Source: Syntrophales bacterium (GTDB lineage: Bacteria; Desulfobacterota; Syntrophia; Syntrophales; PHBD01). Taken from it: 64,000 nucleotides of DNA. The position numbers and the translations under genes were made by a program. The stretch covers positions 96,001-160,000 of the forward strand of contig OY764159.1 in assembly GCA_963668175.1 (NCBI GenBank), in the 5' to 3' direction. Below, piece after piece: positions 59,369-64,000 of the stretch. Positions within the stretch are counted from its first letter, which is position 1. The number at the start of each line of letters is the position of its first letter. The notes beneath the pieces were generated by a model. It did no database searches. It was not told where the DNA came from and saw only the letters and a list, made by a program, of their open reading frames with translations.

Positions 59369-60451
59369 TTATCCGTTACTCTTTTTACGGATGAGCATCA
59401 TATGAACCAGGTACTCCATGACGCTGCGGTCGTGGAGTCGAAGCGTCCAGGGAATGTCTTTTTCAGAGATAAGTTCGAGATCGTTGATCGCATTGCCGTG
59501 GCCTCCTCCGGAGAAGAGCGAACGGACCATGGCGGGGCTCGATCCTTTATGCTCGGACCGCTGGGAGTGCCCCCCCAGCCATGCCTCAACCGGAGTGGCA
59601 TTGGCGGTCCAGTCGTACGGGCTGGAAACGGCCGCGCTGCCGCCGGGCATCAGAATTCTACCGATCTCCTTCAGATAGTCGTAGGGCGACCAGACACAAT
59701 CCAGAACGTTAAGGCTTAATGCTGCGGAAAACGTCCGTTCGGCAAAAGGAAGGGCCGTCGCATCGCATACCCAGAAATCCACATGGTCTGCTTTCGGAAA
59801 TGTGACCGGAAATCTGCGGCGGTCAAAGGCAAGTCCTCCCCGACGCAGGGGATAGGATATGTGCCCTTTTTCCAGAATGGCCGCACCCGTCTTCAGCATG
59901 CCGAAATTCAGGTCGACTCCCAGCACGATTTCATCGAGCGCCTCCGCCAACTCAAAACTCGTACGGCCGACGGCGCAGCCGATATCGATCAATGGCCCTC
60001 CCCCGCCGTATTCATCCGACAGGACACCCTGACGAAGCAATTTGACGATCGACCCCGGCGCCACCGGAGACGACGGCCATCCTTCCGGGTCCAGGTCGCC
60101 GTAGTGATCGAACGCATAGGTGCTGATATGCTGGCGCTGCGAATCGAACACCGACCCCGGACCGAAACAGTCCCCCAGGAGACTCTCCATGGTTTCGGTC
60201 AAATCGTCCCGGCATAAGACAGGCAGTACATTATGAGAAATATAGTTTCTCAGGTTGGCGACGATGACGGGGATTCCGTCAATCACCGGATATTCGCTGA
60301 GACACCGGCCGTCGGAACAGACGAGAATGCCCTCTGTGATCGAACGGTTATTCTCCTTGAGGACGGTTTTGATCGTAAGCGCGGATTCCCGCCCCGCCGA
60401 TCGGCATACGGGACACAAAGGCTTCAGTTTTTCGAAATGAAGCGGTTTGAT
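59369..60451 (-). CDS. Class I SAM methyltransferase with N-terminal Trm112-like zinc knuckle
   Basis: CPVC...GILVCSDGRCLSEYPVIDGIPV; IDIGCAVGR motif I, GVDLN, CDATALPF, LMPGG. Start uncertain (ATC at 60451 has the only good RBS). Confidence 0.8.
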   Translation of the reverse strand: MKPLHFEKLKPLCPVCRSAGRESALTIKTVLKENNRSITEGILVCSDGRCLSEYPVIDGIPVIVANLRNYISHNVLPVLCRDDLTETMESLLGDCFGPGSVFDSQRQHISTYAFDHYGDLDPEGWPSSPVAPGSIVKLLRQGVLSDEYGGGGPLIDIGCAVGRTSFELAEALDEIVLGVDLNFGMLKTGAAILEKGHISYPLRRGGLAFDRRRFPVTFPKADHVDFWVCDATALPFAERTFSAALSLNVLDCVWSPYDYLKEIGRILMPGGSAAVSSPYDWTANATPVEAWLGGHSQRSEHKGSSPAMVRSLFSGGGHGNAINDLELISEKDIPWTLRLHDRSVMEYLVHMMLIRKKSNG

Positions 60452-60456
60452 GGGTC

Positions 60457-60840
60457 CTACCCTCCAATCATGACGGTCGGGCATCCGGGGGGAAGAATTT
60501 TGCCCGTAGGACTGGGGATGGGGGCTGCGCAAGCGGCGTGGGCGGTCAGGTCGTTGACCCTGGCCGCGGGGAGGCCGCCGATCATGACGGTCGCCGATCC
60601 CATGACCACGGTGCCGGGGCCTCCGGGCACGCAGCCGGGAACCGTGCACGGCGTCGTGGTGCTTGTCAGTCGCGCGGCGGGCTGGTTACCGATGAGGACG
60701 GTGAACATGCCGGTGATGATCGTGACCGGCACGGCCGGATGGGGCACAGGCGTGGGCACAGGCGCCGCCGGATGGATGGGGGCATGGCAGTGCGGAGCAT
60801 CCTGAAGGACCATATCACCTACGCGGGCGGCAGCCGGCAT
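60457..60840 (-). CDS. PAAR-repeat protein
   Basis: Three motifs PAAARVGD, PAARLTS, PAARVND; His/Cys candidate metal ligands; ends TVMIGG; AGGAG RBS. Confidence 0.92.
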   Translation of the reverse strand: MPAAARVGDMVLQDAPHCHAPIHPAAPVPTPVPHPAVPVTIITGMFTVLIGNQPAARLTSTTTPCTVPGCVPGGPGTVVMGSATVMIGGLPAARVNDLTAHAACAAPIPSPTGKILPPGCPTVMIGG

Positions 60841-60881
60841 GTTCTCTCCTGCAATATAAGGAACCCCAAATCCATTCCGGG

Positions 60882-61268
60882 TCAGTTCAGATGGATGATT
60901 TTCCCTTCGACGCGAACGTCGTCGTCGGACCGAATGTCCATCTTCTCAGCGGAATCCAGTTGCAGACGACCCTCGCTTTTCAGAACCGCCTCTTCTTTGG
61001 CATGGATCCTTATCTTCTTCGCATCCAGGGTGACGGTTTCGGTCGCTTTGATCGAAAGATGGGCCCCTTCCACGGTAATAACCGGCCCGGCATCGGTCAT
61101 GCGAACCGTGAGCGTGACCTCTCCCTTCGGTTCCACAATCTGGATAAGGTCCTCTTCACGATCGGAGCGGGCGACGATCTCCCGGCCCGATTCAAGCTGC
61201 AGCCGATCTTCTCTGCCTTCGGAAACCTTTGCCGACTTGAGTTTCACGACATTCGCTTTCTTGCTCAT
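60882..61268 (-). CDS. Hypothetical protein resembling a short gp5/VgrG C-terminal beta-helix
   Basis: 7-8-residue beta repeats ending in VRVEGKIIHLN; TAAGGAG RBS; directly upstream of the PAAR gene. Confidence 0.65.
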   Translation of the reverse strand: MSKKANVVKLKSAKVSEGREDRLQLESGREIVARSDREEDLIQIVEPKGEVTLTVRMTDAGPVITVEGAHLSIKATETVTLDAKKIRIHAKEEAVLKSEGRLQLDSAEKMDIRSDDDVRVEGKIIHLN

Positions 61269-61319
61269 GGTATGACTCCTTATGGGGGCCGTTTTCGACT
61301 ACTTATTATACGTGTCGCG

Positions 61320-61348
61320 AGTATAAGAAACGGCATACTGCGTGTCAA
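61320..61348 (-). promoter_or_regulatory. Near-consensus sigma70 promoter
   Basis: Minus strand reads TTGACA-cgcagtatgccgtttct (17 nt)-TATACT. Confidence 0.7.
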
Positions 61349-61364
61349 GCAATAAAGACCTGTC

Positions 61365-62699
61365 CTATGCCGCATCCGTGCCGCCTCGTAACCGTTCGAC
61401 GGCAAGGGCCTTATCCTCTGCATTGAAAGAAGCACCGTATCTTTTCAGGTAACTGTCTTCGCGGACGCGGCCGAATACGCGATAATATCGGGCAATGTCG
61501 TCTTTGGTCAGGCCGGGCAGGGTTAAAATCGATTGATCGTCGTCGGCCGCAAGTTCAAGATAACGCTCCGGGAGGTACCCATTATCGCGGCATACGTCGA
61601 AAAGGACCGTCCCCGGATAGGGATAGAAGACGAAGCAGCCGAAATCGTCGGGGGCTATCTGATCGTTCAAGGCGAGGGTTTCTTCGATATCGTTCCCCGT
61701 CTCTCCCGGGATTCCGATCATATAGTTGGTAGTGGCAAGCATCCCCGCCTCTTTGGTCCACCTTACGGCATCGACGAAAAGTCTGCTGTCGCCCGGCCTC
61801 TTCAGGATATCCTCCCGAACACGTCTGCTGCCGCTTTCCACGCCGTAGATAATATGCATGCAACCGGCCTTTGCCAGCATGGAGATGATCTCGGGGTTCA
61901 CCGTGTCCGCTCTGGCGTTAATGGAAAAGCCCGTGCCGAACTCCTGTCCGTAAGATTGGCAGAATTCTCTCACCCAGTTCTTGTTCAGCGTAAAAGTATC
62001 GTCGAGAAAAATAATATAGTTGACCGGTGTATTCTTCCGGAGTTGTCTCAACTCTTCCAGAACCCCCTCAACCGTCCTCCTTCTTATATATTCCTTGCCG
62101 CCATAGAGCCGGCCTATCGCTCCGCCCGCACAGTAGGCGCAGGGAAAAGCGCAGCCTCTCATCGTGCTGACGTGGACCACGCCGTGGTTTTCCTCAAGCA
62201 TGTCGCGGGCCATGAACGGCAGAAGATCGACGGCCGCGGGCGGCCTGATCTCCGGCCGCTCGGAGCCTCTCGCCCAGATATTGGATATCCCGCCGGCAGT
62301 AAGGCCGCGGCCGCTTTCCAGGTAGGTGAGGAGCTCACAGACGGCCTCCTCCCCCTCCCCCAGGCATAGGTAGTCGAAAGGACCGGATTCCAGGACGGAA
62401 AGGGGCGCGAAAGTCGGGTGGAGTCCGCCGGCGATGATCGGAATATCCATTCTCTCCTTGATTTCTTTGGCAACGGAGACGGCTTTGGCAAACTGCCTTG
62501 TGGTCATCGAAAAACCTATCACGCCGGGGGCAGCCTCTTCCACGGATCGGCAAACGTCCCCGATATCGGTGTCCTGCCTGACTCTGAGGAGGGCCGCGTC
62601 ATGGCCGTGCCGGCGGATGTATGATGCGATAAAGGCCGCCCCGATCGAAGCCAGGGCCTGGCTCTGACCGGTTTCAATGTCCAGAAAAAGAATTTTCAT
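61365..62699 (-). CDS. B12-binding-domain radical SAM protein
   Basis: N-terminal B12-binding domain (IGFSMTT, IAGGLHPT, GEGE); RGCAFPCAYC; DDTF, GVESGS, MIGIPGET, YPYPGT. Confidence 0.92.
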   Translation of the reverse strand: MKILFLDIETGQSQALASIGAAFIASYIRRHGHDAALLRVRQDTDIGDVCRSVEEAAPGVIGFSMTTRQFAKAVSVAKEIKERMDIPIIAGGLHPTFAPLSVLESGPFDYLCLGEGEEAVCELLTYLESGRGLTAGGISNIWARGSERPEIRPPAAVDLLPFMARDMLEENHGVVHVSTMRGCAFPCAYCAGGAIGRLYGGKEYIRRRTVEGVLEELRQLRKNTPVNYIIFLDDTFTLNKNWVREFCQSYGQEFGTGFSINARADTVNPEIISMLAKAGCMHIIYGVESGSRRVREDILKRPGDSRLFVDAVRWTKEAGMLATTNYMIGIPGETGNDIEETLALNDQIAPDDFGCFVFYPYPGTVLFDVCRDNGYLPERYLELAADDDQSILTLPGLTKDDIARYYRVFGRVREDSYLKRYGASFNAEDKALAVERLRGGTDAA

Positions 62700-62885: not shown

Positions 62886-63317
62886 TCATGATGATGTCTT
62901 ATCATAGGCGACAAGGGTCAGTCTGTTTCGCCCTTCTTCGCGATGGTAGCGGACATCATCCATAAACTGCTTCACAAAAAAAATACCCAAACCTCCGATG
63001 CGGCGTTCGTCGATACCGGCACACACATCGGGTTCCCGGGCGGAGGAAATATCGAAAGGAGCGCCCGAATCCACGACGTCAATGATAAGTGCGTGGGCAT
63101 CGCCGAGCTTGCAGGTAATCTCTATGTCGCCTGCGGCATCGCGGCCTTGGTAAGCATACTTGATGATATTGACGAGGACTTCCTCAAGGGCCAGCGCTAT
63201 TTTGCTGATTCTCTCACTGCTGAATCCCTGTTCCCGGGCGAAGCGCGAGACAAAGTCAAGGAAAGGATAGAGAGAAGTCAATGTCCCCGGCAAGGTCATG
63301 GTGTGGGGCATGGCCAT
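62886..63317 (-). CDS. Anti-sigma factor Ser/Thr kinase (RsbW/SpoIIAB-like)
   Basis: EEVLVNIIKYAY (N box), DSGAPFD, GGLGIFFV. Confidence 0.9.
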   Translation of the reverse strand: MAMPHTMTLPGTLTSLYPFLDFVSRFAREQGFSSERISKIALALEEVLVNIIKYAYQGRDAAGDIEITCKLGDAHALIIDVVDSGAPFDISSAREPDVCAGIDERRIGGLGIFFVKQFMDDVRYHREEGRNRLTLVAYDKTSS

Positions 63318-63320
63318 AAC

Positions 63321-63653
63321 TCAGACCCGTTTCAGTGCATCTTCCTGTGTATCGAATATTTTGAAGATCGTGCCGAATCCGGAAATCCTGAACACATCCT
63401 TAACCGGTCCTTTAAGTCCGGAAAAGAAGATATCCCCTCCTTTCGGCTTCAATTGCTTCGCGGCGGCGAGAATGCTTCTCAGGCCCGTACTGCTGATATA
63501 TTCGAGTCCGCTGAAATTGAGAAGAAAGCTGCTCTCTCCCTCGGCAACGAGTTTGGTGAGCGCTTTATCGAATGCCGGCGTTGTGACGGCATCGATCTTG
63601 CCTTTAACGGAAACCACGACCGTATTCTTCTCTTTGACTGTTTCAATTTCCAT
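63321..63653 (-). CDS. STAS-domain anti-sigma factor antagonist (RsbV-like)
   Basis: GKIDA, LEYISSTGLR with phosphorylatable Ser, VFRISGF. Confidence 0.92.
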   Translation of the reverse strand: MEIETVKEKNTVVVSVKGKIDAVTTPAFDKALTKLVAEGESSFLLNFSGLEYISSTGLRSILAAAKQLKPKGGDIFFSGLKGPVKDVFRISGFGTIFKIFDTQEDALKRV

Positions 63654-64000
63654 ATTATCACCGTACGCTTTCTGATGGACTTTTCAAAAGAGTGTCAGGG
63701 TGCCCTCCGGCCGTAAGGGTATCGTCGTATATCGCTTTTATTCTATCCCATCGGGGGCGTTTGATTATTTTTTACGCGATAAGGCGTAAGCTTTCTTGAG
63801 CGGGAGTATATGCTCAACCACCCTTTGTGTCAACGAATTACTCCACTTACGCGCATTTCCTGTCTGCCCCGAAATTCAATCCCGGCTGAAAATCGTACGG
63901 CAAAGACGTGCCCCCTGAGTGTATACGAGGGGCATTTTCTCATACATCGGATTTCGAAGAAAACCTTTATCCGAATGTAAATAATGAGTAAATATATAAC

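Follow-up and report, generated by a model that had tools for sequence, protein, structure and literature searches.

PAAR and VgrG tips are regarded as passive, unmodified adaptors which sharpen the spike of a contractile injection machine and carry toxins, and the combination of a very short spike protein with a small tip protein is the pattern known from Francisella. In PMC13373197, TvpC of the Tvp accessory systems of Serratia marcescens and P. aeruginosa is described as a trimeric VgrG mimic of the DUF3540 family that lacks gp27 and binds PAAR in a pre-complex before being replaced by VgrG1, and the abstract of PMC12955703 calls T6SSii, a subtype of type VI secretion system (T6SS), unique to Francisella. 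Here we describe a cassette of four genes in a 64,000-nt window (the whole stretch of DNA that was analyzed, C1:96001-160000 of the closed 4,567,304-bp genome of a Syntrophales bacterium), which encode a B12-binding radical S-adenosylmethionine (SAM) enzyme, a 128-aa beta-rich protein hereafter called the mini-spike, a PAAR protein, and a methyltransferase (Table 1). The explanation that we find reasonably likely is that this cassette is a spike-tip accessory operon of a neighboring T6SS resembling that of the Francisella pathogenicity island (FPI), that its methyltransferase acts on the PAAR protein or the tip, and that the set constitutes a portable module. Taken separately, it is very probable that the cassette is the tip module of the adjacent T6SS, and probable that the methyltransferase is functionally coupled to PAAR; that this coupling is a post-translational modification rather than a cargo relationship is a tentative preference drawn from sequence comparisons.

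A tip cassette beside a Francisella-like T6SS

An earlier note on this DNA, drawn from the letters of the window alone, had proposed an orphan tip complex without an injection machine. For this genome, that proposal has to be given up, since a complete FPI-like T6SS is immediately adjacent: a plus-strand cluster (C1:160174-183560) opens with clpV about 170 nt beyond the window end, and the cassette operon and this cluster diverge from one shared intergenic region. The window itself does lack sheath, tube, and baseplate genes, as the note had said (its 45 further open reading frames (ORFs) with a length of 110 aa or more either encode housekeeping functions or lack a match at E <= 1e-8, and none belongs to a contractile-injection family), but because the T6SS begins just past its end, the missing machine was an artifact of the window edge. 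The alternative that the note offered, an interchangeable tip supplied in trans to a machine encoded elsewhere, comes close to what we find, except that the machine is next door. Its remark that no full-length VgrG is present extends to the whole genome, where a profile search of all 4.57 Mb returned no match to Phage_GPD, Phage_base_V, Phage_sheath_1, or Baseplate_J. The same search returned one TssC and one PAAR (PF05488, 49.1 bits, the sole match), and the cassette PAAR, as the only PAAR in a genome with only one TssC, is thus the sole candidate tip for the sole contractile machine. The co-orientation of the four cassette genes was borne out (four minus-strand ORFs in 59369-62699), as was the lack of an effector extension on the PAAR protein (127 aa; 52.5 bits in the window scan against a cut-off of 27). 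Compared with the first proposal, the cassette is less strange, since a machine is present, and more solid in the linkage of enzyme to tip.

The ORFs of C1:158001-198000 were scanned with Pfam and NCBIfam, resulting in the T6SS genes listed in Table 1. The IglI-family and Pfam IglE matches give the cluster two hallmarks of T6SSii, and for TssI, TssF, and TssG there is resemblance, not membership. The NCBIfam IglE equivalog scores 53.7 bits on the IglE-type lipoprotein, below its cut-off of 75, and the Francisella equivalog cut-offs were missed for TssI_Fran (25.5 vs. 100 bits), IglH (47.7 vs. 75), and IglJ (23.9 vs. 100). Only 2 of 401 sampled genomes of the phylum passed the IglI_fam cut-off, and no FPI-like T6SS is described for this phylum in the literature searched (subscription journals and supplements were outside its scope). 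A Francisella-island-like T6SS is thereby placed in free-living anaerobic Thermodesulfobacteriota. The 190-aa ORF after tssC, which by gene order presumably occupies the Hcp/IglC position, has an 82%-identical second copy (C1:2234418-2234987) between a choloylglycine-hydrolase-family gene and a 223-aa ORF plus a TAT-signal polysaccharide deacetylase; this second copy may be an auxiliary tube-effector module.

Linkage of the methyltransferase to the PAAR gene

The earlier identification of a zinc-knuckle methyltransferase stands; the start of its listed ORF (59369-60649) does not: the GTG at that point falls within the PAAR gene. An alignment of 20 homologues begins at an ATG at 60484, which we take as the start. 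It overlaps the PAAR stop by 28 nt, and this overlap is conserved among the loci compared. The catalytic domain matches Methyltransf_11 (49.1 bits), and the protein falls below the family cut-offs of ovoA_Cterm (100.7 vs. 170 bits) and of the Trm112-like family (24.1 vs. 77). Comparison of 20 sequences shows C24, C27, and C61 of its four-cysteine zinc ribbon to be invariant and C56 to have a conservation of at least 90%. In the PDB, its sequence is best matched by OvsM (9bxh, E 2.8e-20), OvoA (8khq), and OvoM (9bxl).

With one genome taken per GTDB species, we collected 22 loci with a relative of the mini-spike, 8 of a Syntrophia type (hosts Syntrophus, Syntrophobacterales, and Desulfobacteraceae) and 14 from Myxococcota (Kofleriaceae and Haliangiales), and a metagenome scan added 48 further loci, 37 of them Syntrophia type; L068 and L008 are one and the same contig. 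PAAR comes next after the mini-spike in all 7 assessable Syntrophia-type genome loci (L005 ends too early) and in 35 of 35 assessable metagenome loci. The methyltransferase in turn follows PAAR in 7 of 7 genome loci, intact in 5 and truncated in 2 (L007, L011), and in each of the 24 metagenome loci in which 300 nt or more are available past PAAR. The gene order, on whose conservation the earlier note had made its reading depend, is therefore retained across genomes. In L006, L008, and L010, too, FPI-like T6SS genes occur within 10 kb of the cassette, which there adjoins the other end of the T6SS cluster than in the genome studied here.

In the Myxococcota layout, genes for PAAR (106 aa), a 278-aa protein, and the methyltransferase share one strand and the mini-spike gene occupies the opposite one, where a gene for an 825-aa O-methyltransferase-domain protein often comes after it. 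Where this could be assessed, the methyltransferase adjoins the mini-spike at 9 of 13 genome loci and at all 10 metagenome loci, and a PAAR was found in 9 of the 14 genome loci. Neither a Pfam family nor a named Atlas cluster corresponds to the 278-aa protein, and its AlphaFold2 (AF2) model (mean predicted local distance difference test, pLDDT, 65) retrieved nothing from the PDB with Foldseek at E <= 1e-3. At one Syntrophia-type metagenome locus, a stretch (L060:1413-2012) 33% identical to this protein stands upstream of the mini-spike, PAAR, and methyltransferase genes and takes the position of the radical SAM gene; this locus is a hybrid between both arrangements.

A search of the 401 phylum genomes with the methyltransferase gave matches at E <= 1e-10 in 45 genomes. 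Besides the genome studied here, only G412 and G291 hold close full-length matches; the rest are generic zinc-ribbon plus OvoM-like methyltransferases of about 313 aa or C-terminal domains of OvoA. A conserved linker of about 60 aa in the cassette methyltransferase is absent from these generic relatives, and three generic loci (L030-L032, about 3.6 kb each) contain neither a PAAR nor a radical SAM gene. The generic family, with matches in 42 of 401 Thermodesulfobacteriota genomes (loci L030-L056), is apparently uncharacterized. An IQ-TREE phylogeny was computed from 44 methyltransferases (8 Syntrophia-type, 9 from Myxococcota cassettes, that of G291, 24 generic, and 2 OvoA), with two truncated rows, L011 and L056, omitted. 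The Syntrophia-type, Myxococcota cassette, and G291 enzymes share one side of a branch, with all generic and OvoA sequences on the other; this branch has an ultrafast bootstrap of 97 and an SH-aLRT of 92, the program warns of long branches meeting at it, and the cassette enzyme is placed far from the OvoA domains. All 18 members of this clade are PAAR-linked, in two phyla and three gene orders, and the Myxococcota methyltransferase matches only the cassette methyltransferase in the genome studied here.

G412 has radical SAM, PAAR, and methyltransferase genes with no room for a mini-spike, and in G291 the methyltransferase is accompanied by a PAAR of Myxococcota type and by the 278-aa protein; neither genome gave a match to the mini-spike profile, in a search in which nothing at all was detected and which shows absence only weakly. 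Together with the 18 of 18 linkage, these two genomes indicate that the constant pair is PAAR plus methyltransferase. The G291 methyltransferase gene (C69:1611-2660) contains one in-frame TGA and its PAAR frame a TAG; these could be pseudogenes, sequencing errors, or recoding. On the above comparisons, the linkage of enzyme to tip is real and old for the methyltransferase. The earlier note's suggestion that both SAM enzymes belong with the tip is therefore supported for the methyltransferase (24 of 24 loci, 18 of 18 clade members) and less so for the radical SAM enzyme, which is linked less consistently (14 of 19 and 6 of 8 loci, see below) and is non-orthologous between the phyla. In the same body of literature as above, we found no link between PAAR and either a methyltransferase or a radical SAM enzyme, and neither the word "methyltransferase" nor "radical" occurs in a PAAR survey (PMC8651086).

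No conserved immunity-like gene follows the methyltransferase in the window or at the loci compared. A 178-aa ORF without a Pfam family stands after the methyltransferase in L009 (12017-12553) and L012 (12087-12623) and is absent from the window. A PADLOC scan gave weak generic matches only (29.9 and 32.2 bits) and no known defense system.

The PAAR protein is the most conserved and constrained member of the set. Its translation bears the motifs PAAAR, QPAAR, and LPAAR, and C18, H23, C70, and H101, which we take to be the metal-binding residues, are invariant in 11 sequences from two phyla. Across the Syntrophia-type loci with a full-length match it is 72-98% identical (the mini-spike is 44-80% identical there), and 54-88% in four partial or more distant loci, with a dN/dS of 0.03-0.12; the methyltransferase is 50-80% identical within the Syntrophia type. 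When Myxococcota PAARs with (8) and without (3) an adjacent methyltransferase were compared, no discriminating residue was seen.

The module is associated with more than one kind of machine. Among the 22 other carriers, TssC was found in 5, Phage_sheath_1 in 19, and gp25 in 20, and the type varies between FPI-like T6SS, extracellular contractile injection system (eCIS), and phage tail. The earlier note had allowed that its reading would fall if all carriers possessed a complete T6SS or eCIS; 20 of 22 hold at least one contractile-system marker, and none was detected in the other two. At L018, a module of PAAR, a 280-aa protein, and the mini-spike, without the methyltransferase, is inside a Myxococcota eCIS cluster (L018:3199-15192) with CIS_tube, Phage_GPD, two Phage_base_V spikes (240 and 785 aa), gp25, Baseplate_J, and Tail_P2_I. 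The insert, between the spikes and gp25, consists of PAAR, the 280-aa protein, a 149-aa mini-spike, and an 81-aa zinc-ribbon protein. An 81-aa zinc-ribbon protein follows the mini-spike in L015 too.

Mini-spike, radical SAM enzyme, and upstream genes

The mini-spike resembles a VgrG-tip mimic without gp27, composed of a short N-terminal beta domain and a C-terminal half like a beta-prism, as judged from weak homology and strict context. Its Pfam matches are all sub-threshold (Sarcoglycan_1; DUF3540, E 0.0038, 17.6 bits vs. 27.9; Cthe_2159), none of 29 sampled family members exceeds any Pfam cut-off, and DUF2345 appears sub-threshold in relatives. A few relatives are annotated by JGI with names like "phage gp45-like" or "DUF2345 family". 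Of 114 candidates, 38 matched at E <= 1e-3, and 36 of these are exactly 128 aa. A family-profile search of 1.84 billion representatives returned 801 clusters at E <= 1e-3 and 239 at <= 1e-10, and nearly all among the 150 clusters listed are stand-alone proteins of about 100-220 aa. Against the PDB, the best match of the profile is the beta-prism of a T6SS VgrG (9jg8_G, residues 499-555, E 6.8e-4), followed by 9rce_F (E 0.034) and 8gra_I (E 0.04), and the last 56 residues of the mini-spike align with the C-terminal end of the 173-aa VgrG-like protein encoded in the T6SS cluster (E 0.003). The nearest named Atlas cluster is DUF3540 (0.91; 159 shared features, below the guide value of 170, and so a lead only). 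In the AF2 monomer five short strands in residues 20-66 reach a pLDDT of only 46-65, and the low confidence might be as expected of an intertwined trimer. Neither the gp27-like hub (Phage_GPD) nor the gp5 OB-fold (Phage_base_V) is matched in the mini-spike, and an hhalign comparison of the family with the L018 eCIS spike protein was uninformative (probability 7.8%). We therefore rejected membership in VgrG (no gp27 and no OB-fold match) and in TvpC (DUF3540 under cut-off, no DUF6484 match, no DUF2169 partner). These results offer a testable function for a Pfam-less family of about 800 clusters of putative VgrG-tip mimics, 110-220 aa in length.

The radical SAM protein combines a CxxxCxxC motif with PF02310 (67.4 bits) and PF04055 (87.5 bits), the features that define class B. 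All 28 of its NCBIfam matches are far below cut-off (best ApyD, 118.9 vs. 750), and by cut-off it falls in no characterized subfamily (ApyD, HpnJ, MCR glutamine methylase, PhpK, and others); the best PDB match is 9ccb_A (E 9e-22). Of the 8 genome loci, 6 have the gene directly upstream of the mini-spike; among the metagenome loci, it is upstream in 14 of the 19 that can be assessed (those with at least about 470 nt upstream; L092 has the gene downstream instead). Orthology of the radical SAM gene across the two phyla was rejected: with a Myxococcota radical SAM query, the cassette gene scores 86.7 bits in this genome against 149 for the best match, ranking 11th among at least 20 paralogues. 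As the genes are non-orthologous, the link was either recruited twice or is partly synteny, and we treat the enzyme as a lineage-specific addition.

The arm that contains the cassette begins with genes for a STAS-domain protein and an RsbW-type kinase. Both flank the cassette in L006-L011 and five metagenome loci, and SpoIIE/PP2C phosphatases with sensor domains occur near the cassette in L006, L009, and L010, the partner-switching gene sets there covering L006:6820-8211, L009:12675-14696, and L010:9265-11208. On sequence grounds, this partner-switching set is a candidate regulator of the tip operon or of the T6SS. The two promoter-like sites share identical extended hexamers (TTGACAC ... TATACTC), which would suggest two co-regulated transcription units; both are consensus matches only, and the scan that gave the site before the STAS gene yielded 3 sites in the region vs. 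2.5 expected by chance.

Table 1. Cassette genes, upstream features, and genes of the adjoining T6SS cluster (window positions unless marked C1).
Feature	Position	Strand	Description
B12-binding radical SAM gene	61365-62699	minus	444 aa; Radical_SAM 87.5 bits, B12-binding 67.4 bits
Mini-spike gene	60882-61268	minus	128 aa, beta-rich; no Pfam/NCBIfam family above cut-off
PAAR gene	60457-60840	minus	127 aa; PAAR_motif 52.5 bits, no extension
Methyltransferase gene	59369-60484	minus	371 aa; Trm112-like zinc ribbon + class I SAM methyltransferase
STAS-domain anti-anti-sigma-type protein	63321-63653	minus	110 aa; PF01740 77 bits; first gene of arm
RsbW-type anti-sigma factor/serine kinase	62886-63317	minus	143 aa; PF13581 HATPase_c_2 92.7 bits
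Sigma-70-like site	63805-63833	minus	TTGACA, 17 nt, TATACT, 11/12; before STAS gene, facing clpV
Second sigma-70-like site	61320-61348	minus	Same hexamers, 11/12; in 96-nt gap before mini-spike gene
ClpV	T6SS gene 1, C1:160174	plus	Pfam AAA_2, ClpB_D2-small, Clp_N
TssM-like, 1249 aa	T6SS gene 2	plus	TIGR03348 46.8 bits, below cut-off
IglE-type lipoprotein	T6SS gene 3	plus	IglE_N 87.3 bits vs. cut-off 26
578-aa protein	T6SS gene 4	plus	Weak AMP-binding match only
TssB	T6SS gene 5	plus	T6SS_VipA 138.2 bits
TssC	T6SS gene 6, C1:169998	plus	VipB 385.9 bits
190-aa ORF	T6SS gene 7	plus	No family
TssK	T6SS gene 8	plus	T6SS_VasE 130.2 bits
TssE	T6SS gene 9	plus	GPW_gp25 49.3 bits
541-aa ORF	T6SS gene 10	plus	No family
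173-aa short VgrG-like	T6SS gene 11	plus	Weak Francisella TssI match, 25.5 bits, E 1.1e-5, below cut-off
TssF	T6SS gene 12	plus	T6SS_TssF 102.7 bits
DotU	T6SS gene 13	plus	DotU 65.1 bits
TssG	T6SS gene 14	plus	T6SS_TssG 34.7 bits
IglI-family protein	T6SS gene 15	plus	IglI_fam 304.6 bits vs. cut-off 100

Competing explanations and comparison with known systems

In the mechanism we propose for an accessory operon of the neighboring T6SS, the 128-aa protein would trimerize into a short, gp27-less beta-prism with a blunt end that imitates the tip of VgrG and receives the PAAR cone. This mini-spike might serve as a TvpC-like assembly template that passes PAAR on to the VgrG-like spike of 173 aa, or it might lengthen that spike at its end. 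The methyltransferase would be translationally coupled to PAAR and would act on the PAAR protein or the tip complex in the producer cell, with methylation of PAAR as the favored option, and in the Syntrophia-type loci the B12 radical SAM enzyme may be a second methylase of the same substrate. Methyl-coenzyme M reductase is a precedent for the methylation of a protein by B12 radical SAM enzymes and SAM methyltransferases. The module would also be portable, the set of mini-spike, PAAR, and methyltransferase being found as well in genomes with only eCIS- or phage-type contractile markers. A more far-reaching version, which we think rather doubtful, is that the PAAR tip, possibly with the mini-spike, is the dedicated substrate of its own methyltransferase and, in Syntrophia, of a cobalamin radical SAM methylase, and that the matured module moves between Francisella-like T6SSs and eCIS-type machines and may persist under selection without a machine. 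If true, this would be the first case of a contractile injection system whose spike tip is matured by enzymes.

Several observations weigh against the explanation that we favor. No case of a PAAR or VgrG being modified is known to us, and what the closest characterized relatives of the methyltransferase methylate are small molecules (5-thio- and 5-selenohistidine) rather than proteins. The slot directly after PAAR is the classic place of a cargo effector. The T6SS cluster has a short VgrG-like gene of its own, which leaves the need for a second spike piece unexplained, and the similarities of the mini-spike to VgrG and DUF3540 are as weak as stated above, with an AF2 monomer that is poor as a whole (pLDDT 40.7). 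The radical SAM gene is absent from the S. buswellii-type loci L008 and L010, and the Myxococcota one is a different paralogue, as stated above. The methyltransferase is broken in both carriers without a detected machine. Finally, genome G366 has an FPI-like T6SS (IglI_fam 305.9 bits), an ordinary PAAR, and only a generic methyltransferase; it gave no match to the mini-spike profile, which is weak evidence as nothing was detected in that search. Since an FPI-like T6SS thus occurs without the cassette, the latter would be an accessory of such systems and not a core part.

The most serious competitor is that the methyltransferase is a cargo effector which rides on the PAAR tip and is injected, so that the cassette would be a vgrG-PAAR-effector island with an unusual enzymatic payload, an explanation that we consider unlikely overall and yet deserving of attention. 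It fits the position of the gene immediately after PAAR with a 28-nt overlap, the usual place of PAAR-dependent effectors, as well as the occurrence of the PAAR-methyltransferase pair with different machines. In addition, a large multidomain protein, which could also be cargo, comes after the mini-spike in Myxococcota loci, namely the 825-aa O-methyltransferase-domain protein. The enzyme is also truncated in both marker-less carriers and intact in the others; chance could account for both truncations, and the methyltransferase makes up about 35% of the four-gene coding length. At loci of this kind it is usual for effectors to be swapped, whereas a single methyltransferase clade has been kept with PAAR across two phyla; no conserved immunity-like neighbor accompanies it, and the oxygen-sensitive B12 radical SAM enzyme of this operon is implausible as cargo. 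Modification is tentatively favored over cargo because the PAAR-methyltransferase pairing is deep and non-polymorphic across two phyla, because PAAR is the most constrained gene of the set, because methylases recur (the class I methyltransferase, the class B radical SAM enzyme, and the Myxococcota O-methyltransferase-domain protein), and because there is no immunity-like neighbor. Either way, a PAAR clade with a private methyltransferase in two phyla suggests a new form of tip maturation or a new, unusually stable class of enzymatic cargo.

Two further explanations appear much less probable. That the tip complex of 128-aa protein and PAAR is self-contained, works without any contractile machine, and is modified by the SAM enzymes is, in our estimate, very unlikely. 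Its best support comes from G003 (L007) and G007 (L011), single-record 3.2 Mb chromosomes of metagenome-assembled genomes in which no TssC, Phage_sheath_1, gp25, Phage_GPD, or Phage_base_V was found and in which the radical SAM, mini-spike, and PAAR genes are intact, with a dN/dS of 0.08-0.13 at a dS of 1.1-2.1 between the two; the inconstant machine type of the 20 marker-bearing carriers points the same way. These two assemblies come without reported completeness, and in both the methyltransferase is broken, that of L007 being unrelated to its relatives after residue 289 and that of L011 keeping residues 1-109 only. The close relative of G003 at L009 (dS 0.12-0.20) retains sheath, gp25, and an intact methyltransferase, so that the loss of the machine in the G003 lineage may be recent and the signal of purifying selection may predate it. 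The full T6SS beside the cassette studied here, with the cassette PAAR as its only candidate tip, the contractile markers in 20 of 22 other carriers, and the embedding of the L018 module in an eCIS cluster next to gp25 all argue for use with a machine. A more remote prospect still is that the enzymes are unrelated to the tip and produce a small methylated compound, such as a thiol-like one derived from histidine, being merely syntenic with PAAR and mini-spike. This would agree with OvsM, OvoA, and OvoM, the best PDB relatives, being small-molecule imidazole N-methyltransferases, with the generic relatives in 42 of 401 phylum genomes, which lack a nearby PAAR at the three loci checked, and with the presence of at least 20 B12 radical SAM paralogues in this genome, which makes one near any given locus not rare. 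It is at odds with the PAAR linkage of all 18 methyltransferases of the specific clade through two phyla and three gene orders, with the conserved overlap of PAAR stop and methyltransferase start, and with the methyltransferase being next to PAAR in 24 of 24 assessable loci.

With regard to known systems, the neighboring cluster is like Francisella T6SSii in its IglI-family protein, IglE_N lipoprotein, weak TssI match, and lack of a gp27-type VgrG. It differs in that the tip is a canonical PAAR (PF05488) and not of the DUF4280/IglG type (a DUF4280 search of the genome found nothing and was uninformative, its control being silent too), and in that the host is an environmental Thermodesulfobacteriota genome; for the 128-aa spike-like gene and the enzymes, we know of no FPI counterpart. 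Like the vgrG-PAAR-effector islands of T6SS and eCIS, the cassette has spike-like, PAAR, and enzyme genes in a row near or inside a contractile cluster. Unlike those islands, its spike gene has no gp27 or OB-fold match, it has no immunity-like gene, a B12 radical SAM gene is in the operon, and the enzyme belongs to the same conserved clade in two phyla and is not a variable toxin. OvoM, OvsM, and OvoA are the nearest solved relatives of the methyltransferase by sequence (9bxl, 9bxh, and 8khq, respectively), from which it is set apart by its score below the ovoA_Cterm cut-off, its four-cysteine zinc ribbon and linker of about 60 aa, and its distant place in the tree.

The closest parallel to the mini-spike itself is TvpC, both being small, stand-alone, gp27-less VgrG mimics that have a PAAR gene and a T6SS as neighbors and for which it is proposed that PAAR sits at the end of a short beta-prism. 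The mini-spike is shorter (128 aa), with DUF3540 below cut-off and no match to DUF6484 or Phage_base_V; a DUF3540 search in five Myxococcota carriers found nothing and, with a silent control, was uninformative. Neither a DUF2169 (TvpA) nor a pentapeptide (TvpB) partner is present in the cassette or its flanks, the partners here being a methyltransferase and a radical SAM enzyme, and in contrast to the Tvp systems the PAAR is of PF05488 rather than DUF4150 and the machine is FPI-like rather than T6SSi. If the mini-spike acts as we propose, the idea derived from TvpC, that VgrG surrogates pre-assemble PAAR, would be extended beyond canonical T6SSi.

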